Shown here: positions 10,765 to 59,189 of the stretch, piece after piece
Numbering within the stretch: position 1 is the first letter of the stretch
How the letters are laid out: each line of letters starts with the position of its first letter
NCBI GenBank assembly: GCA_949358305.1
Contig: OX442314.1
Span: 32,240,001 to 32,304,000, forward strand
Direction: 5' to 3'
DNA: 64,000 bases
DNA from: Strigamia acuminata
Lineage: Eukaryota
Notes under the pieces: generated by a model
The model's database searches: none
Seen by the model: the letters and a program-made list of their open reading frames with translations, nothing else
Told to the model about the DNA's origin: nothing
Program-made: the position numbers and the translations under genes

Positions 10765-10905
10765 GATGGCAAGAATGTTACAAAAAGAGAAGAAAGATGA
10801 TAGGAAAGTTAGAAAAATAGGTAAAAAATACTAAAATGGGGAAAAACAAGATTTTTTAATTTTTTAATCTTACTTTAAATTCTAAAAATTCTAAAAATTG
10901 GGATA

Positions 10906-10923
10906 ATCCCGGCCGGGCCCCCA
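10906..10923 (-). promoter_or_regulatory. PBS, tRNA-Pro type (second copy at 16804-16821)
   Basis: TGGGGGCCCGGCCGGGAT, 2 nt after the LTR end. Confidence 0.8.
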
Positions 10924-10925
10924 AG

Positions 10926-12411: not shown

Positions 12412-12747
12412 CTTCCCCCCAATTAAAATCAAACATTTTTAATTTAAAAGGATGGAATATAGTGGGTCCTGATCACAAATTGTTCAAATAATTAAATTAT
12501 TAACAAATTTGATAATAATAGGATTTACAAATTTGCAAATAGAGGTTAAAACACGGAATAAAATAATTTAGTAGTGAAGAATTAGTTATTTTCTAGGCTA
12601 AAACTGAATTTCAACTAAAATTATTGGTAGTCACTACAGTAGTGCATTAAATAATTCGAATAACAATTTGATTTTCAAGAAAAAGTTATGCAAACGATTA
12701 AATACGTAAAAAACAATGATATTAAAAATTTTAACATAAAAAGTTAT

Positions 12748-16662: not shown

Positions 16663-16823
16663 GATGGCAAGAATGTTACAAAAAGAGAAGAAAGATGATA
16701 GGAAAGTTAGAAAAATAGGTAAAAAATACTAAAATGGGGAAAAACAAGATTTTTTAATTTTTTAATCTTACTTTAAATTCTAAAAATTCTAAAAATTGGG
16801 ATAATCCCGGCCGGGCCCCCAAG

Positions 16824-18309
16824 TGTTGCGTTCCTGGATGTTCCCAAAATATATGATAATAATAATTGCACAGAATATTAATCTAATTCAATGCAAAAGG
16901 TCCCGGTATTCAACCTGTGGAAAGCAGTTGAATGCCGTAAAAGGTCTTCTATCGGGTTTGGCAGTTAAGTTGGTGTCTAGGGGTTTTTTGGCTGTTGGTT
17001 TTGTGTCTAGGGGTTCTTTTGGTAGCAAATGCAATAATAACAAGTAATTTAAAAAAGGATAAACAGTTTTATTAATGTTAAAATTAAGGAGTAATATGAA
17101 TACAAGGGATAAATAAATAATTAAGTGAATATTGCTAAAGTTAAACAAAGAAATAAGAGAAAGGCGCGAGAACAATGGAATTGTTCGCGCGCGCGGAAAC
17201 AATAAGTTTGGAAAATGGCGGCAACGGATCGCCGTGAAAATTGGTGCAAATGCACACAAACGGGCGCGGAATCGTGAGATTTCGCGATGTGATTCGGCTG
17301 TGGAGCCAGAATCGTGGCCAGCTAGATAGCCAGGCCAAAGTGGAGAATACGAGGTGTGAACCCTCGAGTTGAAACGGGAAATTCTCCGTTGAAAACTCAC
17401 GAGTCCAACTGGCGTGGTTCGCACTGTCGAATCCGGTTTTCAGGTCCGTTTCTTCTCGGTAAATTACCGTCGTCAGTAGGTCGAGCGTCGAGGTTTCGTC
17501 GGCTTTCGCGCGTCGTCCCTCGTCAACTCGGCGGCTGGCTGGCGTCGGTCTTCAACGTATATCACTCGAATTACCGTCGTCGGTGGCTAGCGTCGAGGTT
17601 TCGTCGGCTTGGCGCGCGTCGTCCCTCGTCGGCTTGGCGTGATCCGGGCGTCGGTCTACGATGGTGCGTATACGTTTATCTTCGGGCGGCGGCGGAAACA
17701 ACGGTTGCTCGGTCCGTTGCACGTCGACTTCGTCGTCCGGGAAGGAGTCACTTGATGCGTATTGGCATCAAGCAAATCAGTTGAAACTTTGCAATATCTC
17801 ACGGATCACGGACAAAACAGTGTTTTTGGTTTGAACAAAGCTGTGTCGGTGTGAACGGTGTGAGGAGGAGGCAAAGAGTGAGTAATAAACGAATTTATTA
17901 CCCAAACTTTGGCCGGAAAATCGGCCGAGTGCGCATGCGTGGCATGCACCTGGCACACTTCGTGCCCAGCAACGGTGCAAATTAGGAGCTGGCCATAGCA
18001 ACCCCCCAATTTGGCAGTTAGGTTGCCATGGCAGTCCTAACGGCTTCTGTTTAACAGCCGAAAGCACTTGGCAATTGCAAATAAAATGAGTATTTTATTT
18101 GCACAAGCAAGCAAAAAATATGTAATTATTTTAACAAATAATTCATTAAAAACACTAAAATAAATTGATTCCTTAAATTACCAATTTCTACTATTTCTAA
18201 ATAATTAAAGGGACTGTAAAACAATTTATTTAACACATTAAATAGATTAAATTATTAATTTCTTATACTCCAAATATTCCAAATAAAAGGAACATTTGAG
18301 ATCACAACA
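16824..18309 (-). repeat. Element B 5' LTR, 1486 bp
   Basis: No difference from 10926-12411 seen by eye; identical ORF-track translations. Confidence 0.93.
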
Positions 18310-25832: not shown

Positions 25833-26842
25833 TGTCACGGCCCGGCATTAACGCGTAATGTAACTTTAACCCATTGTTGTGTTTGTTCGCGTTTTCCGTG
25901 AGTTCCTAGCTATGATTTGTTATCATTGTTTTGTTAAAACTCCCAATAAATCCTAAACCTAATATAATTTGAGTTTTGTCCTACCTTTATTTCCTATTCA
26001 TGTTTATCCTTTGATTTGGTCTGGTGTGGCTCAATTCTGCCACATCAGACTAGTCTAAGTCGTGTATTTCCTACTGTTACCCCTCCTAATTTCGTTTAGT
26101 TCATCCTATCTAATTTAAATGTTTAGTCACTCGCGACTGACTCATCGCGATGATTATTCACGAGCGCGCCTGATTGGCTTACGCGTGCTTGACTCATGGT
26201 TCTCCCCTCGTTTTCTGTGATGGACTTGGCCCAAGTTCACTTCTGAGCTGTTTCAGCCAAGTCTGATCAGAAGGCGTAAGACCATGAGCTATCGTAAGTG
26301 CCTTAACTGGCCGTTGTGCATTTGGCGACTTTTCCTGTGTTAATTCGCAGTAACTCCATGCCACGTAATTGTGCATGTTTGAGTATATCCATTATCATAT
26401 CGCGTGTCTAAATTCCGCGTGTCATCTTTGATTCCTTTCCTTTCGATGTTCTTTTGTGTTTACACGAAGTTTTATGCCGCTGACGTGCCTCTGGACTAGA
26501 AATTAGATTCAAGTAGCTAATGAGTTGTTTATTTCGTCTTTTGCGCGCGATTAGTGCGCGCTTGCTCGGTCTGGCCGCTCCGCCATTAGGGGTCCCTGCC
26601 AGATTAGCTTAAGCCACGTTAGCGTTGTTAAGTCCGCACGTGAGCATTACTTCTTCCACTTTTAAGGCTCCAACAAACTCGGTAATAATTCGTAACATGA
26701 TCGAATAGGGGGTTAAGCTTGCCGCCACCCTTCAGGCTGCTTAACGTTGCCGGGCCCTTATTCGGGACCAGGCTCTCTTGTATCGTAACTGGCGCGTCTT
26801 TCAAACGCGGTTTCAAAGACCAGAAACAACCGGTTCATGACA
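25833..26842 (+). repeat. Element C 5' LTR
   Basis: TGTCACG...CATGACA; repeated at 37261-38270. Confidence 0.97.
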
Positions 26843-26844
26843 CG

Positions 26845-26862
26845 TGGTGCCGAAACCCGGGA
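26845..26862 (+). promoter_or_regulatory. PBS, tRNA-Phe
   Basis: TGGTGCCGAAACCCGGGA, complementary to the 3' 18 nt of animal tRNA-Phe. Confidence 0.92.
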
Positions 26863-27055
26863 CCTTGTTGGAGTTTATTCAGTCTAGCGCATATAAACTA
26901 GTTGCTATCTAACAAGCATTAGTGGCGTTTTTTAGAGACTATTTTGCCGAAAGGAAGGTTTCAGAGTAACTAACTCTTCATAGTACTTGCGTATCGTTTA
27001 ATTACGGTGCGCATCATTTGCAGTGAGCTGTTATTACCCTTATTGTCTCACTAAT

Positions 27056-29044
27056 ATGGCGAATAAGGAAGAAACTCCCGAGAAAAAGAGAGGGATGTTT
27101 GCCGACCTCATAGATCGTTGGGATCCTGTGCGTTTACGCGAGGAGAGACAGCGACGCGAGGGAGCAGAGCGAATGCGCGGTCTGAGACCGGGCGCTCTTC
27201 GTGGGATGCTGGAGGAAATACCAACAGATTCCACTGACCAGCCTAGCTCTATGGAAGGAGATATAAACCCCATTTTGGAGGGGCCGATAAGCGTGCATAC
27301 AGTGACTCCGGCCAGCGCTATTGCTGAGTTGGAAGAACCAGCGCGTTTGCAAAACATTGCTTCGGCTCCAACAAGAAATGAATCAGGAGCGCCACCAGAG
27401 GTGCCTGGTTTGGGGGCTTATCTCCATGATATGGAGGTGGCAATTTCCGCAAGACTGGATCGGGCCATAAATGCACAATTGCATGGTTGGGCCGAGGATA
27501 CGGTCGAACGTGTAAGGAAAGTGGTGGAGGACTGTGCTGCTCAACGACCGCCGTTGGTGGGTGGAATTCCATTAATTCCGCCGCCACAGGAACCTCATAT
27601 CCTCCTGGGCGTGTCGGGGCAGACGGTTCCCCAAATTGTACCTCGCTCCACTGTAGACGCGTCTGTAATCCTGACGCCAAGTGAGATAATATTGGGTGGG
27701 GCCCGTGCAGCACCCAGTATGCAGGGGAGAATCTATGTGCAGTCTCGTGAAGTGGATCCAGCCGTTATCCAAATTAACAGCGAAATAATGCGATCAATAA
27801 TTCGCAGTAAGGCATCGGTAGTGGGTGCACCGTCATCCATACCGTTGAGCCAGCTGGAGAGAGAGAGAAATTCTCAAAGTGGGCAGCGTCCAAGGCCTAA
27901 TGTTCCGCTTCAAACTGGTGCTGTTCCACAAATACCTGTATTTCAACAGACAGGACAATTATCGCAACAGCAATGGCGGCAGCAACCACAACAGTTTGCT
28001 CGAACTTCCGGTATGAGGATGGGGAAGTTACCGGAGTTCGATGTGAGCAAGGGCGCCTATAACGCAGTGGATTTGTTTCTCACTCAACTGCGAGCCCATT
28101 TCTTTACTTCGGGAATGGCGGAGTCGGTGTATCTTGAGTATTATGTGCCTCAAGCTTTAAAAGGCGAGGCTCTGGACTGGTACATTGATTTGCTTCCGAA
28201 GCCTGAGTTTTGGGATGAGTTCGCGCATCTGTTTAAAGACGCGTTCTCTCTCACCGTTGCTGAGACTACTGTCAATTTGGCGGAAAAGCGACAGGCGATG
28301 GGGGAGCCAACTGCAAAATTTTTGCGCGAGACTAACCGATTCCTACAAAAAACAGGGATAGTTGGGGACAGCCAAAAATGGGATATAGCCCAACGACGAC
28401 TGCAACCTGACGTTGCGGAAGTCATGCGTCAAATGGGCGTATTAACCTTGTCGCAAGCCATTGTTAGGGGACAGCAAGCAGATAGCGAGCTGCAACTACG
28501 ATCTCTCCATAAAAAAGATTTCGACCTGCACGGGGTTAAGCGAGGCCAAATGCCGGTTCCCCAGCATACAGCTCAGACTAAGCAAGAAGCCGCCGTGAAG
28601 AAACCGGTTGAGGTGGTTAAGAACTCGACTCGACATTTTTTCACGCGCAATAAGGTTGCGGCCGTGATGGAAGTCTTGGGTGAATTAGAGGAAGGTGGCA
28701 TGTTTGATGATGACAATCAAAGCGTAATGGCACAGACAGTCCGTAGTATCATGGCTACGAAAACTGTGCCTATTGTTGGAACAGAGCCACCGGTAGAGAC
28801 TGGAGAACCCCATGTCTGCAGTCAAAACAACTCCTTCGCTCAGGGCTCCGGCCCACCTAAGGACATTAAATTGCCACCCGGAGCGGAGTGGGCCAAAAAC
28901 AGGCGCGATCGGTGGTATATGCGTGACATTAAATTGAACGCTCCGCTATGCCCGCACTGTTACAAACCCTGGGTCGTTCCGGGAAACGAGAGAGGGCCCC
29001 CACTGAAGTCCGACGCCAAAGTGGTGGACCCAAAGAAGAAGTAG
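27056..29044 (+). CDS. gag: Gag of element C
   Basis: Retrotransposon capsid-like LKGEALDWY..WDEFAHLFKDAF..KRQAMGEPTAKF; only a partial CPHC knuckle. Confidence 0.9.
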   Translation: MANKEETPEKKRGMFADLIDRWDPVRLREERQRREGAERMRGLRPGALRGMLEEIPTDSTDQPSSMEGDINPILEGPISVHTVTPASAIAELEEPARLQNIASAPTRNESGAPPEVPGLGAYLHDMEVAISARLDRAINAQLHGWAEDTVERVRKVVEDCAAQRPPLVGGIPLIPPPQEPHILLGVSGQTVPQIVPRSTVDASVILTPSEIILGGARAAPSMQGRIYVQSREVDPAVIQINSEIMRSIIRSKASVVGAPSSIPLSQLERERNSQSGQRPRPNVPLQTGAVPQIPVFQQTGQLSQQQWRQQPQQFARTSGMRMGKLPEFDVSKGAYNAVDLFLTQLRAHFFTSGMAESVYLEYYVPQALKGEALDWYIDLLPKPEFWDEFAHLFKDAFSLTVAETTVNLAEKRQAMGEPTAKFLRETNRFLQKTGIVGDSQKWDIAQRRLQPDVAEVMRQMGVLTLSQAIVRGQQADSELQLRSLHKKDFDLHGVKRGQMPVPQHTAQTKQEAAVKKPVEVVKNSTRHFFTRNKVAAVMEVLGELEEGGMFDDDNQSVMAQTVRSIMATKTVPIVGTEPPVETGEPHVCSQNNSFAQGSGPPKDIKLPPGAEWAKNRRDRWYMRDIKLNAPLCPHCYKPWVVPGNERGPPLKSDAKVVDPKKK

Positions 29045-32000
29045 GTTTAACACCTAAAGCTGTGTCGGAACCACCGGAAGTGAAGCGCGTGTTGCCACCA
29101 AAATCTGTGTTGACCGCGCCTAATACTGACCCAATACTTCCGAAGTTGACTTCGTTCGTGATGATTTCTCCTAAAGAGAAAGATGTGTCCGAGGAGCCAA
29201 AAATTGAAATCGGGATTGGAGAGAGAGTACGACGAGATTCCCAATACGTGAAGATCGTCTGGAATGACATCCAATTTATTGCGCAATTTGACTCTGGTGC
29301 TCAGACCTGCATCATGGCGCAAGATCTGTATGAGAAGCTGCATGAGAAGATGGGGGTGGAGATGGTTGTGTTGCACGAGACCATTCGCGTTGCCAATAAT
29401 CAGTTAGTTGAGGTTTTGGGTAGCGTGGAAATAACCGTGCGTGCACCTCAAACTCTGATCTCTTTTGTGTGCTTGGTAATAGAGGACTCATCAGCGGACT
29501 TGCTGCTCGGACGAGATTTCTGTCGAGCGGTTGGGTTATGTACGGACCATGGACTTAATTGCTGGTTCATAAGAGGTTCGGAGGAACGGCATAGTTTCAT
29601 GACTATGAGACAGGCGCTGGCCTCCGATCCGGTACTTTTGTTGCCACTAATCCCCGCCGCCCCTAAGATGGCAGTTCCTGCCCCGATTAGTGATGTAAAT
29701 TGTGTTTTGTTGAATCATCGCACATTGCCCGCCGAAACTTTTGAGTTACCGCATGACGATGCGCCATTCAGAGTTAAGGTGGTGGTTTCGCGCAAGACCG
29801 CGGAAGATAGGAGTTGGACATTTCTTTGGTCACCTCCGCGACGCGAAAAGTCGCGCAGAATTCCGCGATACACACGTGTCTACCGGAGGCCCATGTGTTT
29901 TAGCCAGCTCCGACGTTCTAAACGGGTGCGCAGGGCTCGGAAGAGATTGTCGCAGTCTGCAGAGTCGTCCGTTCCGTCAGTTCCTCCCGATTCAGTTATT
30001 TCGGATGTGGAAGGGAAAGTTGGTTCCACTGGTGGACAGTTTTCTCCTACGACCAATTTTGTTGAATATCTGCCTTGTCCTGATCCGACTAAGTTGGACT
30101 GGATTTATGGGCAGTTATCAAATCAACTATCACCAAAACGCATCACTCATTTGATTGACGCGTTAAAACCCGTTTCGAACATCTTCAGAGAAGAAGTGGG
30201 GTTGTGCAATAACACTCTTTTTGAGGTTGATCTCAAACCTGACTTTAGGCCAATACACGTGCCTGTTAGGCCGGTGAACCCAGCCAAGAAAGCTATAATT
30301 GATCAGTACATCGATCAAAAGCTGGCGCAGGGTATTATTCGTCGCTCGAAGAGTGATTGTGCCGTGGCCCCTGTTGTCGTGCCTAAGAAAGATGGCAGAT
30401 GGAGGTGCGCCATGGACTTTCGCCCTATTAATGCGCAGACGATGCCCGACGTGTATCCCCTCCCAGATATTGATAACATCTTTTCATATTTGGGCGGGGC
30501 TAAGTGGTTCACTATAATAGATGGACGTGAAGCGTTTCATCAGATCGGCGTTAGGCCAGGAGATGAACGTTTTCTCGCTTTTATCACGCATCGCGGACTC
30601 TACGAGTATGTCCGCATGCCTTTTGGACCAATAAATGGCCCCGCGACACTGCAACGCGCTATGAATCTTACGCTTGCGGAGTTTCTTTACAAATGCGTCT
30701 TTGTTTACATCGACGACATTATTGTCTTTAGTAAAACATTTGAAGAACATGTTGAACATCTGAAGCAAGTTTTGACACTTCTTGACGCGGCAGGATTCAC
30801 GATGAATGCCGGCAAGACCGAGTTGTGTAAGCGTAGCCTTGAAGTGTTGGGTCATATTGTTGAAGAAGGAAAGATTCGTCCTAATCCGAAAAAGACCAGC
30901 GCGATCCAGTTATTTCCCGCGCCAACTAACGTAAAAGAGTTGCAGCGCTTTAAGGGCATGATTGGTTACTATTCTTCGTTTTTTCCGGGGTACTCGAAGA
31001 CTTGTGAAGTTTTCAGGCCCTTGATGAAGAAGAACGCGCCATGGAATTGGACGGATGGCTGTCAAGCAACGTTCGAGTATCTGCGGGACCAAGTTGCAAC
31101 ATCAACTTTGCAGCGGAGGTTTCCTGACTGGTCGAAGCCGTATATTCTGCAGACAGACGCGAGCTACTCAGGCTTGGGTGCTGCGTTGATGCAGTTGGAT
31201 AATAACGGCATTCGTGTGCCAATTGCATTTGCTTCGCGCGCTTTAAATAGTGCGGAAAAGAATTATAACGTTACGGAGATCGAGTGTCTAGCTGCTGTTT
31301 GGGCAGTTAAGCGTTTCCGCAGTTACTTAGAACTTATGGATTTTTACCTTGAGAGCGATCACAAGTGTTTAAAATGGCTTTTTGCTCAGCGCGAACCAAA
31401 GGGCAGATTGGCTCGATGGATTCTGTCAATGTCAGACTTTCGATTTACATTTCTGCATTGCAGTGGCACAAGTAATCGTGTCGCTGATGCGTTGAGCAGA
31501 GCTCCTGTAGATCCGGCCATTGAAATTGGCGATGATGATTGTCCGCTCGTAGATGATGCGACATATTGTGCGTTCTTTGACGATTTCGCAAGTTGGCCGA
31601 CCATTGAAATGGTGGAGCTCGACGAGCATTTCGTGCCAAAACCATCTGGCTCAAAGATCGTTAATGCGGCTAAACTTCGTAAGAAATCGCGTATTCTTCA
31701 AAAGAAACGTGAATTTGAGGAGTTGGAACCACTTGAGTTGTTTGGGGATTTAAACACCCGACCCCCCAAACCCCCCGGCCCCTCAAGGGGGGGTAGTGTG
31801 CCGGCCGACATGGAAAATGTCGTGTTCGATGCACACCAGCTCTCCGGTGTAACTACGCCTCCAGCTGCCTTGCCACCAAAGAGGTGTGTTGGGAGGCCGC
31901 GTAAGGTAATAGCGCCGCCGACTGACTTACCATTGAAGAGGCATGTTGGAAGGCCAAGAAAGGTCATTGTGGCTCCTACTGATCCTGTACCAAAAAGGAA

Positions 32001-32412
32001 AAGAGGGAGACCACCAAAACCCAAACGTAAAGTGGGAAGACCTAAAAAGGTTGTATCACCTGCAAGAAGTGAGCATTCGTCTTCACCAGCGTCACCAGTT
32101 TCGAATGGAGGAAAATCTGGTAGCGAGCGATTTTTGAGTGACCATAGTTCCGACGAATATCGGACTACGGTGCCACCTTTGCCGACGCAACCAAATACGC
32201 GTTTGAGGCAGACTCAACAACCTTTGGTGGACGGCCAAGTCTCGCCATACGAATCCGAGGATTTGGATGAGGATCGACCGGCTGAGCATCCGGCTTACGA
32301 GCTTTTGCCAACTCAGAAAAGAATGAGGGAAGTTCAGTTGGCTGACGCTTGGTCAAAAGGCATTATGCTGTATTTAGAATCATTTACGTCGACTACTTTG
32401 GAAAAAAGTTGA
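28948..32412 (+). CDS. pol: Pol of element C (PR, RT, RNase H, AT-hook insert), broken before integrase
   Basis: FDSGA, YIDD and TDAS motifs; four GRP AT-hook cores; frame ends at 32412. Confidence 0.93.
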   Translation: MPALLQTLGRSGKRERAPTEVRRQSGGPKEEVGLTPKAVSEPPEVKRVLPPKSVLTAPNTDPILPKLTSFVMISPKEKDVSEEPKIEIGIGERVRRDSQYVKIVWNDIQFIAQFDSGAQTCIMAQDLYEKLHEKMGVEMVVLHETIRVANNQLVEVLGSVEITVRAPQTLISFVCLVIEDSSADLLLGRDFCRAVGLCTDHGLNCWFIRGSEERHSFMTMRQALASDPVLLLPLIPAAPKMAVPAPISDVNCVLLNHRTLPAETFELPHDDAPFRVKVVVSRKTAEDRSWTFLWSPPRREKSRRIPRYTRVYRRPMCFSQLRRSKRVRRARKRLSQSAESSVPSVPPDSVISDVEGKVGSTGGQFSPTTNFVEYLPCPDPTKLDWIYGQLSNQLSPKRITHLIDALKPVSNIFREEVGLCNNTLFEVDLKPDFRPIHVPVRPVNPAKKAIIDQYIDQKLAQGIIRRSKSDCAVAPVVVPKKDGRWRCAMDFRPINAQTMPDVYPLPDIDNIFSYLGGAKWFTIIDGREAFHQIGVRPGDERFLAFITHRGLYEYVRMPFGPINGPATLQRAMNLTLAEFLYKCVFVYIDDIIVFSKTFEEHVEHLKQVLTLLDAAGFTMNAGKTELCKRSLEVLGHIVEEGKIRPNPKKTSAIQLFPAPTNVKELQRFKGMIGYYSSFFPGYSKTCEVFRPLMKKNAPWNWTDGCQATFEYLRDQVATSTLQRRFPDWSKPYILQTDASYSGLGAALMQLDNNGIRVPIAFASRALNSAEKNYNVTEIECLAAVWAVKRFRSYLELMDFYLESDHKCLKWLFAQREPKGRLARWILSMSDFRFTFLHCSGTSNRVADALSRAPVDPAIEIGDDDCPLVDDATYCAFFDDFASWPTIEMVELDEHFVPKPSGSKIVNAAKLRKKSRILQKKREFEELEPLELFGDLNTRPPKPPGPSRGGSVPADMENVVFDAHQLSGVTTPPAALPPKRCVGRPRKVIAPPTDLPLKRHVGRPRKVIVAPTDPVPKRKRGRPPKPKRKVGRPKKVVSPARSEHSSSPASPVSNGGKSGSERFLSDHSSDEYRTTVPPLPTQPNTRLRQTQQPLVDGQVSPYESEDLDEDRPAEHPAYELLPTQKRMREVQLADAWSKGIMLYLESFTSTTLEKS
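28981..29031 (+). promoter_or_regulatory. -1 frameshift signal G GGA AAC plus downstream stem
   Basis: Heptamer in the gag frame within the gag/pol overlap; GGGCCCCCACT..AGTGGTGGACCC hairpin 6 nt downstream. Confidence 0.8.
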
Positions 32413-33434
32413 AGTCTAGCCAGGGTAATTGCTACGCGTTCGTAATGGTTGACGCAGCTAGCAGATGGGTTGACGTTCGGCTTACTGAAAATGCGGATGT
32501 GCCAACTACCATCAGGCAAATTGAGAAATTTGTGCAACGATGGGCCTTTCCAAGGACTTTGATTAGTGACAATGCACCTACTTTTCGTTCTGCGCGTTTT
32601 CAAGCGCACTGTGCGGGAATGGGCATTGTGAACAAGTACATATCTGTATATCATCCGCAAGGGAACTTGGCGGAGCGCCTAAACCAGTCGCTGAAGACCT
32701 GCATTCTCGCGTACATCGACGAACACGTGAACTGGGACCGTCATATCGGCTACTTCATTTTGGCCATTAACGCCAGCTATCAAACATCTTTGAAGTTTTC
32801 GCCGTATATGATGATCGTTGGACAGGAAGCGCGTTACCCAGGCGACCTCGACAGTGATACCGACGACGGAGATCCTCTCCCGCCGGATGAGGCGAGGTAT
32901 TTACATCGTTACATGCTACGCGTCGGAGCCGAGGCACGAAAGAACCTGGAGATCGCAAACCTGCGACACAAGCGATGGTACGACCGGAAGCGACGGCCCC
33001 ACGACTTCAAACCTGGCGACTGGGTGACACTGAAAAGCAGAATCTTGTCGTCAGCGGACAAGCAGGTCTCGGCAGGGTTTCAGCAGCGGACGGAGGGTAT
33101 TTATATAATACACCGGATCATCGAGCCGAACACCGTGCTGTTAATGAAGGAAGATGGCAGCGTAACGCAGCCATATCACATCGTCGACTTACGACATTGG
33201 TACAGCGAGCCTGATGACAGCGCGAAGACACCAGCGGATGTTTTGGATCCTCCGGAAGTGCTGACCGCCGCTGGAAGTGAGCGCGTCCCCAGTTTCATCT
33301 CTAAAGCGGACATGGATGACATTTATCACCGAGTTGACAAATTTAGCGCGGAATCACGTGAGATTTGCATGAATTTTTATGCCGAGAACAGAGTTCGGCT
33401 GGATGATTGCGAACACGGGGAAAGTTCGTCATGA
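32369..33434 (+). pseudogene. Integrase core and C terminus of element C, out of frame and lacking the HHCC domain
   Basis: YVD..SDNA..HPQGNLAE DDE core; no H-H-C-C between the RNase H linker and the core. Confidence 0.88.
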
Positions 33435-34805
33435 ACACCTTCTTTTTCTGCTTTTAAAGTGTTTTTTGTGATTATTAATTTATTTCTTAGCATTGGTTGC
33501 ATTTTTAGCTGAGTTTTGGTGTTTGTAGAATTTGTTTACATTGGAATGAGTGTGTTGTTGTGTTTTTTCGTGTATTTTTACTAATCTCTAGTTTTTGACT
33601 ATTTATTACTAATTGCGGTTTTTTCGTCGACATTTCGGAGGGAGATGCGGAGTTAAAACTCTTTTCTTTTCCGTTCGAGATGGAGACGCGACCTGTTGTC
33701 GATTTATTTTGATTTTTGTGAGCGTTTGGTGTTGGTTTTCATGCTCGTTGTTGGTTGCGCGTGTGTGGTCTAGTTTACGACAGATGGCGCCGGAGTGTCT
33801 GGTGTCATCTGACCGATGACCTCACTTTTCAATCAGTGTCTGGCGGCCATATTGTATTCGCGGCTTAACACAGTGCGCCTCGTGTCTTCGCGTCTCTGAC
33901 ATTTTCAACGCGAGCCAAGCCACAACTGAGCGTGGAAGTCCGCCAAAGCGCGTTTAATACGTTTGTAACATTAACTGTGAGTATTATTGTGGTTTTCACT
34001 GAAAAATTGTAAATTTTGACCTACTCGAGCAACATGTGTTTTTTCATAAGTGCAAAGTTTTAGGGTTAAATTTTCCCCGAACGCGTACTGAAGTGTTAGA
34101 GCTGCTTTTTTGTTAATCTCTTGTCGGTATATCGCGTTAGTATTGTTTAGAATGCTTCGCTATTAATTGTCAAGGCGTATCTAATTGTTAGGAAAATTTA
34201 GTATTTTTGTTTAGTTTCACTTTTCAAAATGCAAGATGGCGACGCATCGCTTTGAAAATTTTCCATCAGGTCATGTGATGTCCGCCATCTTTGGTGGAGT
34301 ACCCGTATGCGTGTAGATGGACTTAGCCAATTTTTTGAGCTCATGTATTTTGTAGTGATAAGTCTGCACGCGACCGCTATTTCCTGTTCGCGTTTGCTTC
34401 CTAATTTGATACGATAGTTACGATGAATTTTGTACATCTTTGTGAGGATTTTGTGCTGTTGTTAGATGCATTAATTAATATTTTTTCCCCAATATTATAT
34501 TTTTGTTTTGGGCTATTACGCGTTTGTATCTCGTTGATTCTCATCGTGATTCCATTTCACGTGATTTGCTTTGCAATCTTTATTACTGCTGTTATTTTTA
34601 ATTGCGAATACCTTTTTTGGTTAAGCTATGAATTGTTATGTGAACTTTATCGAGTAATTTTTTATAATCCGCGTTATTAGCCCATGTTTTTATTGTTGTA
34701 TTTATTTGCTCTTGCTCGAGTGGTGTATTTTTTGTTGTTTGATTCTTTTATTGATTTTTTGATTTCTGCTTTTGTGACTGAATTTAGAAGTGATTTTCAA
34801 TCGTC

Positions 34806-36680
34806 ATGACTGGACGAGGCAACGGAGTACGACCGCCGTGGCGAGGAGGGAAAAACGGAAAGAATAAGACAAATGTTGAGACGCGCCGCCAGCGACAGGC
34901 GCGTGAGCGCTATGTTTGTCCCTACCCTGTGCCGCGATTGTTTGAGACGGGGCCCATCTTGATGCCAAACTATCATCCTGACCACCCTATGTGTCGCGCC
35001 TTCCCGAATCGCGAGCTTTGCCCTGTGTGTTCGGGGTGGGGTCATCTCCATCGAGGCGTGGACGAGTGCTTCGCGTGCGAGGGATTTGGAAATTTGCGTC
35101 GAGCTCAATTTAAAATATGGATGCGACGTATGCAGGCCCTTTGTTTAGGAGAAACGATGGCGGATGGGAGAGACATTTCGTTTTATGTCCTGCCCGATAC
35201 TTTCCAGCCGCTTTTGGGTGCCGCGTCTGACTGCAATCGCTTCATTATCCAACACGAGGCCCATTGGCGCAATACTATCCAGAGAGCCGCCACCATGGGA
35301 GTGCGTCCGCACAATTGGCAATATCCTCCTTTGGGGTGTTTAGTCATGGCACCAGGCACGGTGACCCCCGAGTTGCCTTCCTATTTTCGTCAGTGGGCCC
35401 CTATGGTCCGAGGGCAGTCCAATCGTGTGCCGCCGATAACATCGCGTCTCCATTCTCAGGCGCATCAGCGGCGGGATAACCCACGAGCTCCTGTTGTGGT
35501 TGGGCGTGCGCGTTTGGCTGCTGAGGACGAACGTTTGCGACGAATTGGCGAGCGAAACGCCCATTTACTGGAGGACATCGTCCAGCTGCAGGGGCTCCAG
35601 CGTCAGGTCCGGGATGGATTTGTAGCCGCAAGAGCGGCGCCTGATTTGCCTGCTGCCGTTGCTGTGTTGTCGGAGCGATTGGCGCCGAGTTCGTCTCAGT
35701 TTTTCAACGTCGCTTCTGGTGTAATGGTCCCCCAATGTCGACCAGTGCCTACGTTACAACGTGTGCTGGAGGTTCCACCGGCCCAGGTGAGCGAGATAGT
35801 GGATGATTTGCCAGAGGTTTGCGTAGTTCCACCGCCAATTGATGAAGCGGCCCTATCAACCGCGCTACTGCCGGTTGGGCGACCTACCTGTGACATGGAC
35901 GAAATAGCGACCCCTTTTGGTGTGAACTTGCGACGGGATTGGGCTGAGACCGACATGGAGTGGCTAATTCGATGCCACGACGAGGCGACGCGCCGTCGCG
36001 AAGCCGCTTTTCCAGGAGGAATGGTTCCTCGTTCTTCGTCCTCCCAATTGGAGCAGTCGTTGGATTATGTTGGGGAGTTGCCCAATTTGCGCGTTTGCTT
36101 GACTGACGCCGGACGGGATGTTGAGTGTTTACCGGAGTCGTCGGATGATGAGGAGGACGATAATGCGCGTCCGCGACGACAGCTTCTGCCTGTTTTCACT
36201 GGTCGTCCAGTCCAGCATGACCTGCCGTTTCCAACTCAACCCGAGGACTTGACGGCCGCAATCAAGAAGGTGATTGATTTGCAGCATCGGAAGCGAGATT
36301 TTGTTACGGTTCGTGAGCTCGAGCTGTATTTTGAAACGATTATGGCGCGTGCGACCTTCGACTCGCTTTTCCCCATGGGTGCCCTTGAATGGGAAGGTCC
36401 ATCGCGATGGCGCACGGACACTTATTTGGAGGCCGATGCTTCGCGTTGGAGAGAGTTTTTCTATTTGGTGGTGAAGAAAGAGCTTGGATTGCCGGAGAAC
36501 GTCGCGGCAATAGTTCATTTGCTCGGGGAAGGCCATATTCGCGTGTTGCAGCAATTAATCGCGGACACTTTGACTGAATTCCGCCCGCGTTCCGAGCAGC
36601 AGCTGGGCGATGTTATTACCTACCGCGTTCTTACACTCATGAAGGAGCTTGTGACAGCTGTCACCGGCTATGAGTTTTAA
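34806..36680 (+). CDS. ORF3 of element C: 624-aa non-Env accessory protein with two CxxCxGxG motifs
   Basis: Intact ORF inside the LTRs; CPVCSGWG and CFACEGFG; no signal peptide or TM segment evident; putative Inr at 33833 and 5'UTR intron 33977-34787. Confidence 0.85.
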   Translation: MTGRGNGVRPPWRGGKNGKNKTNVETRRQRQARERYVCPYPVPRLFETGPILMPNYHPDHPMCRAFPNRELCPVCSGWGHLHRGVDECFACEGFGNLRRAQFKIWMRRMQALCLGETMADGRDISFYVLPDTFQPLLGAASDCNRFIIQHEAHWRNTIQRAATMGVRPHNWQYPPLGCLVMAPGTVTPELPSYFRQWAPMVRGQSNRVPPITSRLHSQAHQRRDNPRAPVVVGRARLAAEDERLRRIGERNAHLLEDIVQLQGLQRQVRDGFVAARAAPDLPAAVAVLSERLAPSSSQFFNVASGVMVPQCRPVPTLQRVLEVPPAQVSEIVDDLPEVCVVPPPIDEAALSTALLPVGRPTCDMDEIATPFGVNLRRDWAETDMEWLIRCHDEATRRREAAFPGGMVPRSSSSQLEQSLDYVGELPNLRVCLTDAGRDVECLPESSDDEEDDNARPRRQLLPVFTGRPVQHDLPFPTQPEDLTAAIKKVIDLQHRKRDFVTVRELELYFETIMARATFDSLFPMGALEWEGPSRWRTDTYLEADASRWREFFYLVVKKELGLPENVAAIVHLLGEGHIRVLQQLIADTLTEFRPRSEQQLGDVITYRVLTLMKELVTAVTGYEF

Positions 36681-37260
36681 GGCGCGTCCCGTTAAGTGAA
36701 AGTGACTTTTTTCCGGAATTGACTTTTCTGTGTGATTAACGTGACTTTTTTCCGCGTAATCGAACGCGAAGTTTAGTGCTTTTGATGCGGACATTTTGTT
36801 TGAACTTTTTGCCTGATTGTGAAATTTTTATTTGTGCCTTTTGATCGCGTGTAAATTTTTGAAGTGTGAGATTTGATTCGCTTGTGTTGTTGAGTCCACG
36901 CGAAGTTTCGCGCCTCACCCTTGCGTTTTTGATTTTTGTTTTCCTTCCGCGATCTTAAGATTTTCTTATTATAGTGTATATTTTCTTTTTTGTAGTGTTC
37001 CCGAGCGTCGCGATCTTAGTTAAGTGATTTATGCACCATGTGCATCTGTGCCTGGCGCTTAGGCTAGTAATGTTTTATTTTGTGTTTTCGGCGCTTAACG
37101 CCTGTGTGTATTGTTGAGTCTACGCGACAATCCTCGCGCCTCATAATGTTTGTTTAATTTGATTGATCATTCCAATTGATATTTTGTTTTTGTATCGCTT
37201 TTTATTTTCTTTACTTTTCAGATTTGTTTCGAGAATAAAAACACTCTCGTCCGAGGGGCG

Positions 37261-38270
37261 TGTCACGGCCCGGCATTAACGCGTAATGTAACTTTAACCC
37301 ATTGTTGTGTTTGTTCGCGTTTTCCGTGAGTTCCTAGCTATGATTTGTTATCATTGTTTTGTTAAAACTCCCAATAAATCCTAAACCTAATATAATTTGA
37401 GTTTTGTCCTACCTTTATTTCCTATTCATGTTTATCCTTTGATTTGGTCTGGTGTGGCTCAATTCTGCCACATCAGACTAGTCTAAGTCGTGTATTTCCT
37501 ACTGTTACCCCTCCTAATTTCGTTTAGTTCATCCTATCTAATTTAAATGTTTAGTCACTCGCGACTGACTCATCGCGATGATTATTCACGAGCGCGCCTG
37601 ATTGGCTTACGCGTGCTTGACTCATGGTTCTCCCCTCGTTTTCTGTGATGGACTTGGCCCAAGTTCACTTCTGAGCTGTTTCAGCCAAGTCTGATCAGAA
37701 GGCGTAAGACCATGAGCTATCGTAAGTGCCTTAACTGGCCGTTGTGCATTTGGCGACTTTTCCTGTGTTAATTCGCAGTAACTCCATGCCACGTAATTGT
37801 GCATGTTTGAGTATATCCATTATCATATCGCGTGTCTAAATTCCGCGTGTCATCTTTGATTCCTTTCCTTTCGATGTTCTTTTGTGTTTACACGACGTTT
37901 TATGCCGCTGACGTGCCTCTGGACTAGAAATTAGATTCAAGTAGCTAATGAGTTGTTTATTTCGTCTTTTGCGCGCGATTAGTGCGCGCTTGCTCGGTCT
38001 GGCCGCTCCGCCATTAGGGGTCCCTGCCAGATTAGCTTAAGCCACGTTAGCGTTGTTAAGTCCGCACGTGAGCATTACTTCTTCCACTTTTAAGGCTCCA
38101 ACAAACTCGGTAATAATTCGTAACATGATCGAATAGGGGGTTAAGCTTGCCGCCACCCTTCAGGCTGCTTAACGTTGCCGGGCCCTTATTCGGGACCAGG
38201 CTCTCTTGTATCGTAACTGGCGCGTCTTTCAAACGCGGTTTCAAAGACCAGAAACAACCGGTTCATGACA
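37261..38270 (+). repeat. Element C 3' LTR
   Basis: Near-identical to 25833-26842; followed by ACAC TSD. Confidence 0.97.
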
Positions 38271-39400: not shown

Positions 39401-39750
39401 TTCAAGTTTTAGGTTCTTTGGGCAATTCTCTGGAATTCTCCGGAAACGACACTACAGTTTACCACATTTCAGCAAGACGTCCATATAGTTGACAGCACAT
39501 TGTTTCAGAATTGGCTGCAACGTTTGTAGTTTGTTAGTCATGGTTTGTATTGTTTGTATGCCAAGTTTGGCAATTTGTATTCTGATAGAACTAGAATAAA
39601 CAATGGTTTTCCAATGTGCTGTCAACTATATGCCTACAGCACACTTTTCCAAATTTGAACTTTTTTCTGCAGATTCTGTTAGTATTCCGTTAGTATTCAT
39701 TTGTAATGTATAAATTTTCGTTTGTATTGGTTTACAACAAATTCTATGCA

Positions 39751-41165
39751 GTGTGCTGCCAAATTGATGCTGGAATACACACACCCAATTTGACTTTTCT
39801 TTACAGATTCCTTTAGTATTTAGTTAGTATTGATTTGTAATGTACAAATTGTCGTTTGTATTGGTCTCTACAAGCCGCAAAATCGATTTGACCGTTTTTG
39901 GGCACTCAGGGAAAAGCGTGTGCTGCCAAATTGATGCTGGAATACACACACCCAATTCCACTTTTCTTTACAGATTCCTTTAGTATTTAGTTAGTATTGA
40001 TTTGTAATGTACAAATTGTCGTTTGTATTGGTCTCTACAAGCCGCAAAATCGATTTGACCGTTTTTGGGCACTCAGGGAAAAGCGTGTGCTGCCAAATTG
40101 ATGCTGGAATACACACACCCAATTCCACTTTTCTTCACAGATTCTATTAGTACTCAGTCAGTATAGATTTGTAATGTACAAATTGGCGTTTGTATTGGTC
40201 TCTACAAGCCGCAAAATCGATTTGACCGGTTTCGGGCACTTGGGGTAAAGCGTGTGCTGCCAACTTAATGCTGGAATACACACACCCAATTTCACTTTTC
40301 TTTACAGATTCCGTTAGTATTTGGTTAGTATTGATTTGTAATGTACAAATTGTCGTTTGTATTGGTCTCTACAAGCCGCAAAATCGATTTGACCGTTTTT
40401 GGGCACTCGGGGAAAAGCGTGTGCTGCCAAATTGATGCTGGAATACACACACCCAATTCCACTTTTCTTCACAGATTCTATTAGTACTCAGTCAGTATAG
40501 ATTTGTAATGTACAAATTGGCGTTTGTATTGGCCTCTACAAGCCGCAAAATCGATTTGACCGGTTTCGGGCACTTGGGGTAAAGCGTGTGCTGCCAACTT
40601 AATGCTGGAATACACACACCCAATTTCACTTTTCTTTACAGATTCCGTTAGTATTTGGTTAGTATTGATTTGTAATGTACAAATTGTCGTTTGTATTGGT
40701 CTCTACAAGCCGCAAAATCGATTTGACCGTTTTTGGGCACTCAGGGAAAAGCGTGTGCTGCCAAATTGATGCTGGAATACACACACCCAATTCCACTTTT
40801 CTTAACAGATTCTATTAGTACTCAGTCAGTATAGATTTGTAATGTACAAATTGGCGTTTGTATTGGTCTCTACAAGCCGCAAAATCGATTTGACCGGTTT
40901 CGGGCACTTGGGGTAAAGCGTGTGCTGCCAACTTAATGCTGGAATACACACACCCAATTTCACTTTTCTTTACAGATTCCGTTAGTATTTGGTTAGTATT
41001 GATTTGTAATGTACAAATTGTCGTTTGTATTGGTCTCTACAAGCCGCAAAATCGATTTGACCGTTTTTGGGCACTCGGGGAAAAGCGTGTGCTGCCAAAT
41101 TGATGCTGGAATACACACACCCAATTCCACTTTTCTTCACAGATTCTATTAGTACTCAGTCAGTA
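39751..41165. repeat. 167-bp satellite, ~8.5 copies, with 334-bp A/B higher-order repeat
   Basis: GTGTGCTGCC recurs at 39751, 39918, 40085, 40252, 40419, 40586, 40753, 40920, 41087. Confidence 0.95.
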
Positions 41166-41431
41166 TTTGGCTTGGCACACGTCAAATCAGATCATGTGAC
41201 CAAGGGGAGTAAACTTCCCTAGGCACATCTCACCCCAGGTTGTCCAGGGTGAAACGGTAATTAACCGTTGTGGTGCAATAATTCCTTTGTTGCACCATAT
41301 TGAGCTAATTGCGCAGATTATCTGCGCAATTTCGGAGCTTGCCAGGCTCGCGCCCGCGCTTCGAACAGGACTCTTGATTTTACCACCAACAACACAACAT
41401 CACTGCTTTTTCCTCAGCGTAAAGTATTGAT

Positions 41432-43491: not shown

Positions 43492-44565
43492 TGTGGTGAC
43501 CTCAAATATTCCTATTTGAGTGCGCACCATATTTCCAGATTGTCTTATAAACATATTCAACAAGCTTATATGTTTTGTTTCAATGTAAATTGAAATAAAA
43601 TATATATTAATTAAATATAAAACAAGACACAATATTACCCAAATAATATTGCGTTTTGCAGCAAGTTTTGGCCCAGCAACAGCGTCAACCAATCACGTTG
43701 CAGCATGCATTGCTTTGATGATGCTGCTAGGCGTGTGCCTGGGCGGAGCATCCCTTCCCCTCGCGCGTGCCCGGCTCAATTGTTGCACACGACCCGAAGG
43801 CGGCCGTGTGTGATCTTTGTGCAACTCGTCATCTGCGCAGCTTTTCTGAGCAGATTTAGGAGTGAGCCAAACGGTTTTGGCCCACTCTTCCCGCATTCTT
43901 GATCCTGCTTCCAAACCTTTCACAACCGTGTCAAACTTATGCCCAAACTCGCTAAGTGTGATCTGTGATATTGGAAGAATCGAGATTCATTGCTGGTCCG
44001 TGCCAACTGTACGGAATAGCGCCTTTCTAGCTTGAATTACTACGCGTAATTTAAGCAATTTCTGTGTGTAAATTGACATTGAGCTTGCTCTGTCAATTTG
44101 AAGGCTTTGTGTTGAGTTTAACTCCACAAGGCGAACTGTGTTAAGACGGATTGTTACGTCGAGCTTGCTCCGTAATAATCAAACCGCTGTGTGCCAGACG
44201 TATTCTCGTGTTGAGCTTGCTCCGCGAGGATTTTAGAATATTTAGAGGCGTATTTTAGCGTTGAGTTTACTCCGCTAAAATCCCGCGCTCATACGACGCC
44301 GTCGACGCCATCTTGGAGCCAACGGTCAACTGTGAGTGTAGGTTTGAAGAAGAAGCCAGATCGACCCCAAACATTATCTTTTTGAATAATACCTCCTTTG
44401 TATTTTGAACAATTAAAGCTATCTAATTTTTCCTTTTACTCTCTGTGTAAAAATCATTCCCCTAGACAACCATTTGGTCACAGAGTAGAAGTCCTGTACG
44501 GCATCTCACCGACGATTGCTTGTTAAATTTGTATAATTTAATAAGTAAAAACCCGGATCGCCGCA
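43492..44565 (+). mobile_element. Solo LTR of family A (1074 bp)
   Basis: TG..CA ends, TCCT 4-bp TSD, diverged colinear match to 9029-10092. Confidence 0.95.
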
Positions 44566-52437: not shown

Positions 52438-55400
52438 ATGTTGGCTGAGCGGCGTGCTCTGCCTCGACGGGACCCGAGTCTGAGGTCGAGCGCCGGCCCC
52501 GATCTGAGCACGCCATGCGCCGCAGCGGCGAACGACGGCAACACCAACAACTTAGCCGTCGCGCGTGCTCCAGGTTCGACGTCTTTCGTCCATTAAATCC
52601 AATTTCTAATATTTTTTTCCAGACTCGCCGAGTGTTCGTCACCGCCTGCTGTCGCCGCGGCTGGGCCCGACTCGCACCGGAAGCGACCCGGCGCTCGTGG
52701 CGCACGATTCGCGGCACTCGGTGTCGGTTCTGTCCGCGAGTTGCAACTCGCACGTTTTGCCGAGTTCGACGCCTCTGGTCGTCACGTGGGACATCGTGGA
52801 GGATGTCAGCACGAGCGATTGGATAGGGCTGTATAAATTAGGTGATTATCACGTGGTTGGTTGGGTGCGGATATCCTGTTGGAGGCCGAAAACGGTTGAT
52901 TTCCTTCGCGAACCCGGAACCGGTCACGATGATCGTTTGCGCCCTCGGGCTGGAGGATGTGGAGAAGTGGTCTTGAGTGATGTGGAGACGTCGGTGGAGT
53001 TTTGCGCGTCGAAATGCATTTAATTGTCGATGTTTTCGGCGGTTTGGAGCGAGATGGAACGTGTTTTTGTTGTTGTTTGTGTAAATTTTGTCTAAAAAAA
53101 ATTTTTTTTTTTATAATTTTTTTTTATAATTTTTTTTTATAATTTTTTTTTTTTGTTTTTTTAGATGAGACGAATCCGTTTCACTATTTGGAGTATAAAA
53201 ACCAAGGTGTTGGAGGGTTCCATAAGGGGCAGATTATGTGGATGATCGACTGCGATTATCATTTTACTGAAGGTTTTGATTTTGTGGATTTTTTGAATAA
53301 ATTTTGATTTTTTTGGTTAATTTTTTGTTTTTTTTGTTTTTTTGTTTTAGATATCACGAATATTTGTTTCAAATATTATCACGGAACAAGTGGTGCCTTG
53401 CGAGCTGTTACACCGCCCATTCGAGTGCTGAAAAGCACGGTGGAGTCGCCCGAGCAGGCCGAAAGCCAAAGTGTGATTGACACGTCGCTGATGGGATATT
53501 CAGCATGGCCGGATCTTGCAGAAATCCTGAAATTCAAAGTTTTTGGTAAAAAATAAGAAAAATAGAAAAATATAACAAACTCTAGTGAAAAACTAGTAAA
53601 AAACATCATTTAAAACAAGAAATTATTAAGGAATGTCATAGATATCGACATAAAGTGAAAGGAAATTGTTAAAATCATCAAAAAATTGAAAGGAGATCGT
53701 AAAAATCAAGAAAGAATGAAAGGAAATCGTAAAACCAACCGAGAAAAATGTTTTAAAAGAATGAAAAAGCGAAGCAATAATTAAAGAATTTGATTTTGAC
53801 AGGTTTACACGCATGGTCGTTGAAGAAAGGCATGTTTTTTAACCCCGATCCGTACGTAAAAATGAGCATTCAGCCCGGCAAAGCACCCAACTCGCTGCCA
53901 ATGCCGCACCACGGCCAGGAAGTGCGCACGCGCATCGCCGAAAACACTATCAACCCCAGCTGGAAACACCAAGTAACAAAACAATCCACAAAACACAAAA
54001 ATAAAAAAAATAAAAAAAATTTCAGGAATTTTCGTTCATCGCTTACTCATCGGACGCCATTGAATTCGAGGTCAAGGATAAATTTGCCAAGAGCCGTCCA
54101 ATCATCAGTAGGTTTCTTGGCAAACTCACTGTATCTGTCCACACATTATTTAACCAAGCTAATAGGTAACAAAATTCAAAAATAATTCAAAAATAATTCA
54201 AAATAAATTCAAAAAAACCTTTTTTAGAGGAACCACCGAGTTCCAGTTTAGTTTATCGAGTAAAACGCCTTCAGATCACGTGACGGGTCAACTCAGCTTC
54301 TGCATAACCATTTTAAAACGCCCAGGTACCGAAAAAAAACCAAAAAACCCAAAAAAACTAACAAAAACCTCAATTCCAGACGCGTGGCCCACGAACCAGA
54401 CGCACCCGATGCCTTATCTGCACGACATCGACGACGGCGGCCAAGCAAGCTCGAACCCCAGCACCCCCCGACGCCACAAGTCGGCCCTCCGCGCCGCCTC
54501 GCTCCCCAACGGCTCCACCAACGGCTCCGCCAACCCCGACGCGCCGACCCCGGACGACCAAACCCCGTGCTGCAGCAACTCCATCTCCCTCTCGGAGCCC
54601 ATCGGCGGCCCCGACTGCGAAAACCTGCGCAACGGCTGCTGCTTCGACCACGACGACTCCCCGATCTGGAAAAGACGCACCCCGGAAGTGATGAACCCGA
54701 CGTACTTCGAGCTGAGCGCCACGCCGAACGGTCGCTGCCCGTCGGACGACGACCTCCCGCCGCCGCTGCCGCCGAAAACGAAGAAGAAAGCCGTGCACAA
54801 GCCCCTCGAACGGACCAAGGGGCTCTACTACAACAACCCGGGCCCGTTCGGGGCCCCCAAGGGCGGCGCGGCCAAGCCGGAAGACAGTTTCATCCTCGAG
54901 ATAGTGGACACGGACGAGCTGGAGCGCGGACGGCACCGCAGGGTGCATCGTGAAGTGGGCAAATGTGCTGCCACGGCGTTTCCCGAATTCACGGACGAGC
55001 AGAACAAATCCATCCAGGCGCGCGCGACCGACGGCGACCCGTGCCCCGCCAGCCCCGCCAGCCCCGCGCCCCTCATCGACAACCGCGACTTGAATCGCGT
55101 TCACGTGGCACCGCTAGCAACGCCCGAACACGATTCATTGCAGGAGGGGTGTCCGTCCATCGAGAATCTGACCGACCCCGAACCCGAACCCGACGAGGTG
55201 GTCGAAATCGAGGAAATTCGGACCGAAAACGAAGAAATTCGGACGGAAAGCGACGAAATTCGGACCGAAAACGACGAAATTCCGTCGGAAAACGTTGAAA
55301 TTCCGTCGGAAAACGTTGAAATTCCGTCGGAAAACGCGGAAAACGATGAAATTCGGACCGAAAACGAGGAAATTCGGGCGGAAAACGCGGAAAACGATGA

Positions 55401-59105: not shown

Positions 59106-59189
59106 GTCAGTTTGACCGTCGGAGGTTTGGTTATCAAAATTTGACGTTTTTCGTTGATTTTTTGGTGATTAAATGATGGAAAATCGTGA

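Follow-up and report, generated by a model that had tools for sequence, protein, structure and literature searches.

An orphan third gene between pol and the 3' long terminal repeat of a Ty3/gypsy element in Strigamia acuminata

Third open reading frames (ORFs) that do not encode an envelope protein (Env) are a known class (PMC5408684, PMC13524379, PMC8220671, PMC2774666). Here we analyse one of them, named ORF3, which is carried by element C, a Ty3/gypsy long terminal repeat (LTR) element of Strigamia acuminata. The window, that is, the whole stretch of DNA analysed, has 64,000 nucleotides (nt) and covers positions 32,240,001 to 32,304,000 of the forward strand of contig OX442314.1 (assembly GCA_949358305.1); all positions below are counted within it. 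Among the closest described systems, the third ORFs of the bdelloid elements Juno and Vesta also follow pol, are family-specific and are not Env, and typically form a separate spliced unit (PMC5408684). They encode GDSL, DEDDy, coiled-coil or transmembrane proteins, whereas ORF3, for which no source can be traced, lacks enzyme and membrane domains and combines a Cys/His cluster and a basic tail with an orphan helical domain. The CERV protein of the C. elegans element Cer1 is a nuclear orphan of 517 amino acids (aa), made from a spliced mRNA and having a possible C4 finger, and RNA export by it needs its cysteines (the Cys loop) and an arginine (PMC10309623). ORF3 is likewise a large orphan of a Ty3/gypsy element with a possible C4 finger, a coiled helix and domains on flexible linkers; however, it lies after integrase with a predicted leader exon of its own, shows no homology to CERV, and export is established for CERV alone.

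Two more systems resemble ORF3 in position. The foamy virus genes tas and bet are expressed from an internal promoter (PMC13220597) and provide a regulatory gene near the 3' LTR (PMC13220597, PMC3694450), and element C shares with foamy viruses a donor-like site (25898) upstream of AATAAA (25945). Foamy viruses, however, belong to Retroviridae and not to Ty3/gypsy, element C has no Env, there is no sequence link, and the promoter in our case is a candidate. In maize, gene23 of Grande and other additional 3' ORFs of plants lie between pol and the 3' LTR and are conserved in most copies, and gene23 has its own promoter and encodes a nuclear orphan protein (PMC7264820). The plant genes are antisense, while ORF3 is in the sense direction and in an animal element. 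On the whole, ORF3 is an orphan within the known class of non-Env third ORFs, and its protein, its architecture and possibly its C-terminal fold are without described relative. Our literature search, outside which most subscription papers and supplements lie, finds no description of the ORF3 protein or of third ORFs with CxxCxGxG motifs.

ORF3 and its maintenance across copies

ORF3 is an intact open frame on the plus strand at 34806-36680. It encodes 624 aa and starts 1,372 nt past the stop of the integrase-core frame (33434), in accordance with the preliminary description, which placed an intact ORF 1.4 kb after integrase. The longest open frame in 500 shuffles of this region reaches 292 codons, against the 624 of ORF3. 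Other copies of the element are represented by contigs from two public runs (X1 and X2) of one study, and no RNA run is among those listed for the region. Since these contigs span the intron and flanks of the gene as well as its exons, and the longest are 29 and 37 kb, we infer that they are read from DNA. The differences between copies reported here are the best-supported ones among those listed, with 341 and 495 more in the two runs. Among them, 33 fall in ORF3, of which 29 are synonymous and 4 non-synonymous; none creates a stop, and 27 are located at third codon positions. With a neutral synonymous share of 0.33 (transition-weighted), the binomial p for such an excess is 7e-11, and the same differences read in the other two forward frames would give only 4 and 5 silent ones. 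Elsewhere in the element, the silent ones among those listed are 4 of 9 in gag, 3 of 4 in pol and 1 of 2 in integrase. Because the differences between copies are mostly silent, ORF3 is maintained, and we conclude that it is a real gene under selective maintenance. The preliminary description had taken a lack of conservation among copies as a reason to doubt the gene, and our analysis finds the copies conserved.

The distribution of insertions and deletions has the same direction. Among the 12 listed (9 more lie beyond these), the intron accounts for 10 over its 811 nt and the 1875 nt of ORF3 contain 2, close to the end (Fisher p 2e-4), and all 12 listed loose ends are in the intron. In diverged copies, three pieces span 951 nt of ORF3; they are 84-93% identical to it and free of gaps, while the diverged non-coding pieces are 81-91% identical and usually gapped. 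Identity alone gives no proof of constraint, since the ORF3 pieces are no higher than the non-coding ones; the constraint signal is in the kind of change and not in its amount. That ORF3 is non-functional cargo, open by chance or captured recently and neutral, is therefore hardly credible: pol is broken in this copy of element C, which would agree with it, but the open frame far exceeds the at most 292 codons of the shuffles, the listed differences are silent in 29 of 33 cases, and the diverged copies are gap-free.

The summed contig depth of gag-pol is several times that of ORF3 in both runs, a ratio that is not a copy number, which hints that many copies of the element are without this ORF3 or have a diverged 3' region. 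It is also observed that in both runs the summed depth falls in two steps, past the integrase core and at about 33800 (32929-33802 compared with 33803-36861), hinting at subfamilies common in gag-pol and different in the 3' region.

The encoded protein begins with an Arg/Lys- and Gly-rich N terminus of net charge +9 (residues 1-36, 34806-34913), basic as previously noted. It is followed by a cluster (residues 57-95, 34974-35090) in which five cysteines and four histidines fall within residues 57-91, and which includes an HPD triplet (57-59) and the two CxxCxGxG motifs CPVCSGWG (72-79) and CFACEGFG (88-95). Both motifs had been pointed out in the preliminary description, and they are beyond chance (0 of 20,000 shuffles); the two repeats could form one C4 site. 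A long helix, possibly a coiled coil, is predicted at residues 234-276 (35505-35633; pLDDT about 54-73 over 241-290), residues 306-477 (35721-36236) are acidic and Pro-rich with net charge -15, modelled at low confidence and probably disordered, and residues 478-624 (36237-36677) are predicted from the single sequence as a compact helical domain (pLDDT 70.5, pTM 0.61). The coiled coil and helical C-terminal domain described earlier are thus both found in the prediction.

In a simple window test over the whole protein, the highest 19-residue hydropathy is 1.22 and there is no membrane-length hydrophobic segment, so that ORF3 is not taken as Env, in agreement with the earlier statement that it has no Env features. 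The position of ORF3 in the Env slot, its Env-like length and two RxxR-type sites would suit a divergent envelope or fusogen, but besides the missing membrane segment the N terminus is basic rather than hydrophobic, only one N-glycosylation sequon is present (residue 20), and neither Pfam nor the fold searches, among them one with a full-length model of poor quality (pLDDT 39.9), give a fusion-protein hit; we regard this reading as very improbable. Overall, ORF3 is very probably a functional non-Env accessory gene.

No relative of the protein is found by a word-indexed search of proteins of near and shorter lengths, by phmmer in 1.84 billion representatives, or in metagenome contigs, and the ESM Atlas gives only leads below 0.9 (0.79 and 0.77). 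A known Env or a captured host gene, a match to which would have refuted the preliminary description by its own terms, is not matched by Pfam, the word-indexed search or phmmer. The preliminary description also looked to tBLASTn and to predicted folds for relatives, and neither yields one. Among 80 loci related by reverse transcriptase (RT), tblastn of ORF3 has a best E of 3.7, with no homolog in these other Gypsy elements. The full-length AlphaFold model gives an empty Foldseek search, the model being too poor to search with, and the model of the C-terminal domain (147 residues) has no Foldseek match in PDB or BFVD. In VIA, the best Z for the latter is 6.6 (OPA1, rmsd 4.1, 111 residues aligned), the matches being unrelated helical chains with none at 8 or above, and the modelled domain is possibly a new fold. 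The suggestion that this part begins like a LOTUS/winged-helix domain gains no support, as no Pfam family is found for residues 478-624 or 478-545 and such a fold is absent from the listed fold matches, although residues 478-530 are the part that the model predicts least well (pLDDT about 50-65). All these absences have to be weighed with the poor sampling of close RT relatives, the best of which is 46% identical.

The single family hit of ORF3 in Pfam is DnaJ_CXXCXGXG (PF00684), with E 0.0013-0.044 and 14.5-19.4 bits against a cut-off of 32.7. The DnaJ-type finger of the preliminary description is therefore retained in part: two exact CxxCxGxG repeats are there, but two and not four, below the cut-off, and with neither a J-domain nor a DnaJ C-terminal domain. 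Weak matches of the finger (E 0.16-5.7) are the DNAJA2 and Ydj1/Mas5 fingers and the p62 ZZ domain; the last one, with E 0.16, is rejected because two ligand positions are unmatched. The HPD triplet lies 15 residues ahead of the finger, an arrangement reproduced in 95 of 20,000 shuffles of residues 1-71, and was noticed after the fact. A J-domain is likewise rejected, for Pfam gives no DnaJ hit and two prolines stand in the 13 residues before HPD, and the helices of that domain are missing.

These likenesses bear on a rather unlikely reading, in which ORF3 is a host-directed adaptor whose CxxCxGxG motifs would bind proteins, like DnaJ-type fingers, and which would alter the host cell (chaperone recruitment, survival or immunity) in favour of the element; it may come from a lineage-specific host gene. 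The DnaJ family hit with its DNAJA2, Ydj1/Mas5 and p62 companions, the HPD triplet and a cell-like gene layout would agree with it, and the poor sampling of host relatives means that a captured host gene could be missed. However, the best DnaJ score of 19.4 bits is far below the cut-off with half of the repeats, prolines occupy the helix position of the undetected J-domain, and no cellular homolog appears among the 1.84 billion representatives.

The finger has also been compared with the retroviral CCHC knuckle (C-x2-C-x4-H-x4-C), which is rejected since the first three ligands fit and the fourth does not. A particle-associated RNA chaperone replacing the knuckle absent from Gag would still account for a Gag without CCHC knuckle, for the basic tail of ORF3, and for CPVCSGWGH, whose pattern is that of a knuckle's first half (found in 1 of 2000 shuffles). 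This role is quite doubtful, because the spacing of the fourth ligand is not that of a knuckle, a His is missing from the second motif, the depth excess of gag-pol suggests many copies without ORF3, and Ty3/gypsy Gags without knuckle are known (PMC2774666).

Leader exon, intron and origin of the message

The region ahead of ORF3 contains signals of a putative spliced message, all on the plus strand. A non-coding block at 33619-33844 is a candidate internal promoter; it has a YY1-like site at 33782 (by motif count) and a branch-point-like CTGAC at 33809, which is 24 nt upstream of a TCAGT at 33833. A non-coding leader exon without ATG is predicted at 33833-33976, with GCCATATT at 33846. Then comes a GT..AG intron of 811 nt and 34% GC (33977-34787), beginning with a GTGAGT donor, containing two more YY1-like sites (34234 and 34284), and having its acceptor AG end at 34787, 18 nt ahead of the ATG. 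The TCAGT, GCCATATT, donor and acceptor named in the preliminary description are all found at these places.

The intron is supported by one contig of run X1, in which 33974 and 34789 are separated by three letters, so that a net 811 nt is lost, the length of the predicted intron. The contig has a depth of 127 and a short side of 27 nt; two of the three junction letters are unlike those expected, which could come from a diverged copy, and the joint is absent from run X2 (one of two runs). Most simply, the contig would stem from a copy that arose from spliced RNA; the alternative is a deletion plus a small indel.

The origin of the message is less clear-cut. GCCATNT, the YY1 core, has four occurrences in the spacer where 0.53 would be expected (1 of 1000 shuffles has as many), and CGCCATNT has three against 0.14. 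The YY1-like motif of the preliminary description is thus enriched, with the reservation that its count was chosen after the motif had been seen. The block 33619-33844 is 91% identical in a diverged copy, compared with 81-87% in four neighbouring non-coding pieces. An internal promoter is favoured on these two grounds, the enrichment of GCCATNT and the block being the best-kept non-coding piece. The initiator-like reading of TCAGT fares less well: the site is present, but the spacer has no excess of TCA[GT]T (6 occurrences for 6.8 expected), and the site may equally be a 3' splice site, as CTGAC precedes it by 24 nt and its pyrimidine count is that of the 34787 acceptor, though 11 of 54 AG sites in the spacer outscore both. 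If TCAGT is a 3' splice site, the exon 33837-33976 would be an internal non-coding exon of an LTR-driven RNA. As judged from the sequence, the readings of an internal promoter and of LTR-driven splicing both stand.

Possible roles of the protein

The preliminary description proposed a nucleic-acid-binding regulator or an anti-silencing factor, both of which are putative roles. The role that we tentatively prefer, while holding it short of probable, is that of a nuclear RNA-binding regulator exporting the element's own unspliced RNA, by analogy with CERV of Cer1 or with Rev. The full-length RNA has several splice signals, namely the donor-like sites of the LTR, the 811-nt intron and an acceptor-like site at 37222. 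Together with the intron-less form in one contig, these signals put the genomic RNA at risk of splicing, and since the RNA has such signals and can lose its intron, it needs an unspliced way out of the nucleus. In ORF3 an Arg/Gly-rich tail of net charge +9 stands beside the Cys/His cluster, and Arg-rich RNA-binding motifs occur in Rev and Tat. The protein would be made from a spliced message, arising from the internal promoter or from LTR-driven splicing, and would be located in the nucleus. There it would use its Arg-rich tail and predicted zinc site to bind unspliced RNA of its own element, oligomerise by means of the long helix or of the C-terminal domain, and recruit an export factor with its acidic middle. 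It may then act in trans on copies without the gene.

Several points weigh against export as the role. Pfam, phmmer and the fold searches give no sequence or fold link of ORF3 to CERV, Rev or any RNA-binding family. The N-terminal part of CERV is common with Gag and it has a G-protein-like domain, while ORF3 has neither. Patterns of a nuclear export signal and RGG in ORF3 are at shuffle level, as are those of a SUMO-interacting motif and PxVxL, and there is no classical monopartite nuclear localisation signal. A response element is not found either, as the 3' untranslated region (UTR) folds no better than shuffles (z 0.37) and its two hairpins have z -0.65 and -1.84. The intron joint is that of a single contig in one of two runs, with its 27-nt short side and two unexpected letters, and the ORF3 differences come from two runs of one study, being the best-supported ones. 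Moreover, a transcription activator expressed from its own promoter would agree just as well with the enriched YY1-like sites and with the acidic middle.

Such an activator is possible, but we place it on the unlikely side: ORF3 would be expressed from its own internal promoter and act on DNA or chromatin, either as an LTR activator like foamy virus Tas or as an anti-silencer like VANC (PMC3694450, PMC6719617). Its location between pol and the 3' LTR with a non-coding first exon is as in systems with third genes from internal promoters, including the foamy viruses, Grande and the Tor elements (PMC4402516). The excess of GCCATNT and CGCCATNT, the well-kept block 33619-33844 and the acidic, Pro-rich middle would all agree with it, and an unrelated Ty3/gypsy clade has ORFs after integrase that begin with a C2H2-like finger. 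Against this, TCAGT with its upstream CTGAC reads equally as an acceptor, the YY1-like count was picked afterwards, no DNA-binding fold comes out of the fold searches, and the SUMO-interacting and PxVxL-like motifs are at chance level. A more specific form is improbable: ORF3 would be a family-specific counter-silencing protein with a YY1-type promoter, would release its family in trans from control by piRNAs or heterochromatin, and would be one case among several in which animal Ty3/gypsy lineages independently gained a zinc-finger third gene.

The carrier element, element A and other third genes

Element C occupies 25833-38270, and its gene order of gag followed by protease, RT, RNase H and integrase matches Ty3/gypsy. 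Its two LTRs on the plus strand (25833-26842 and 37261-38270) have 1010 bp each with TG..CA ends and differ at 1 of 1010 bases, and ACAC is duplicated at both flanks as a 4-bp target duplication; by its near-identical LTRs this is a young, newly inserted copy. The 5' LTR contains, by motif counts, donor-like GTGAGT/GTAAGT sites at 25898 and 26294 and the AATAAA at 25945. Directly after it comes the primer-binding site (26845-26862), which presumably matches tRNA-Phe. Pfam and a pattern search identify gag (27056-29044, 662 aa) without a complete CCHC knuckle, and this gag matches that of element A, another element of the window, weakly (E 0.004). Pfam further places protease, RT and RNase H in the pol frame (28933-32412) and the integrase core in a different frame (32346-33434). 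The integrase zinc-binding (H2C2) domain is not detected by Pfam in this copy, while it is present in element A and most listed relatives. Since this domain is undetected and the integrase core is out of frame, pol is considered broken, and the element was probably mobilised in trans or broken after insertion. At 32346-32412, loose ends at 32376 in run X2 show that other copies differ here.

The nearest RT-RNase H relatives of element C are at most 46% identical, so that there is no close RT relative in the databases. In a FastTree phylogeny of 100 sequences it groups with element A and with springtail (Orchesella), tick and unnamed sequences (support 0.93), a position that points to a probable arthropod host.

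The 3' UTR (580 nt, 36681-37260) has an acceptor-like pyrimidine tract ending at 37222, an AATAAA at 37234 and a duplicated 21-nt motif. The duplicated motif (36883-36920 and 37107-37143) forms the same interrupted hairpin twice, with weak z-scores, and the segment 37200-37239 is seen as a strong acceptor-like tract with AATAAA just ahead of the 3' LTR. At the other end, between the primer-binding site and gag (26892-26924), a TATAAA is followed by TTAGT at a distance of 27 nt, while the LTR itself lacks a TATA box; this is a possible second internal promoter, for the gag-pol message. Between RNase H and integrase (31500-32300), pol has an Arg/Lys-rich tract with repeated GRP-containing motifs, which to us resemble AT-hooks.

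Element A also has an extra gene after pol (1-1572, minus strand), interrupted by a 5' intron and by one or more additional gaps that look like introns. Read by eye, its intron has the donor at 1449, the acceptor at 1372 and the ATG at 1363, on the minus strand. It includes a 150-aa exon (748-299) without Pfam hit, and after a stop an Arg/Ser-rich frame that leaves the window. The preliminary description saw the same layout in elements A and C; the GT..AG intron before the ATG is indeed shared, but the coding part of A is interrupted, GCCATNT is not enriched in A (1 seen, 0.64 expected), and the proteins are unalignable. The exon, which by eye had looked like a homolog of ORF3, is rejected as such, as BLASTP gives no alignment and 279-532 of 3000 shuffles score as high against the C-terminal domain.

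Other observations in the window concern repeats. On the minus strand at 10260-18309, two direct repeats of 2152 bp, 99.9% identical, stand around an ORF of 1304 aa (16662-12748), which begins within the repeat, lacks an RT and gives no significant Pfam hit. Immediately ahead of the gag of element A, a sequence of 1.06 kb (9029-10092) has an inverted copy, 92% identical, 33 kb off (43492-44565), and its start resembles the start of the 2152-bp repeats; the two copies are possibly an LTR of element A and a solo LTR. Tandem arrays with units of 167, 21, 10, 30, 40 and 31 nt lie at 39584-41219, 55183-56900 and 57800-62000, and long ORFs at 54166-56437 overlap tandem repeats.

Beyond the window, another Ty3/gypsy clade (35 rows, support 0.997) has ORFs after integrase of 227-613 aa that start with a C2H2-like finger and continue with a conserved helical domain or a second Cys cluster. 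A sense ORF of this kind is found in 13 of 25 related loci with at least 1500 nt after integrase and in 3 more on shorter contigs, 16 in total (L008:6708-8015, L014:6802-8472, L015:3787-5625, L016:6034-7818, L017:7032-8801, L019:7772-8530, L028:3795-5573, L033:3415-4320, L036:6284-7195, L038:4305-5216, L041:2198-3118, L043:5040-5921, L047:5365-6420, L049:5006-6172, L060:7798-9267 and L063:6315-6995). The tally comes from 21 of 56 downstream ORFs, chosen by eye for examination, and includes near-duplicates; a loose pattern match in L010 is left out, as it looked like the gag of a neighbouring element. These ORFs have no Pfam family above cut-off and no description in the literature searched. 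Their helical domain is rejected as a homolog of that of ORF3, with a profile score at shuffle level and an hhalign probability of 0.1%. Because all 16 loci belong to one RT clade separate from element C, zinc-finger third genes seem, from sequence, to have been acquired on more than one occasion.

Animal Ty3/gypsy elements are for the most part described as consisting of gag-pol, to which env may be added, and among their accessory regulators with tested function CERV alone turned up in the literature searched. As a large orphan under strong constraint, with a likely zinc site and a possibly new helical domain, ORF3 is a concrete candidate for one of three roles, in RNA export as a second case after CERV, in activating transcription or in countering silencing, and the finding would be worth more if the first or the third proves right. 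Seen beside the unrelated third ORFs with C2H2-like fingers, ORF3 suggests that regulatory third genes may be commoner in animal retrotransposons than their annotation shows.

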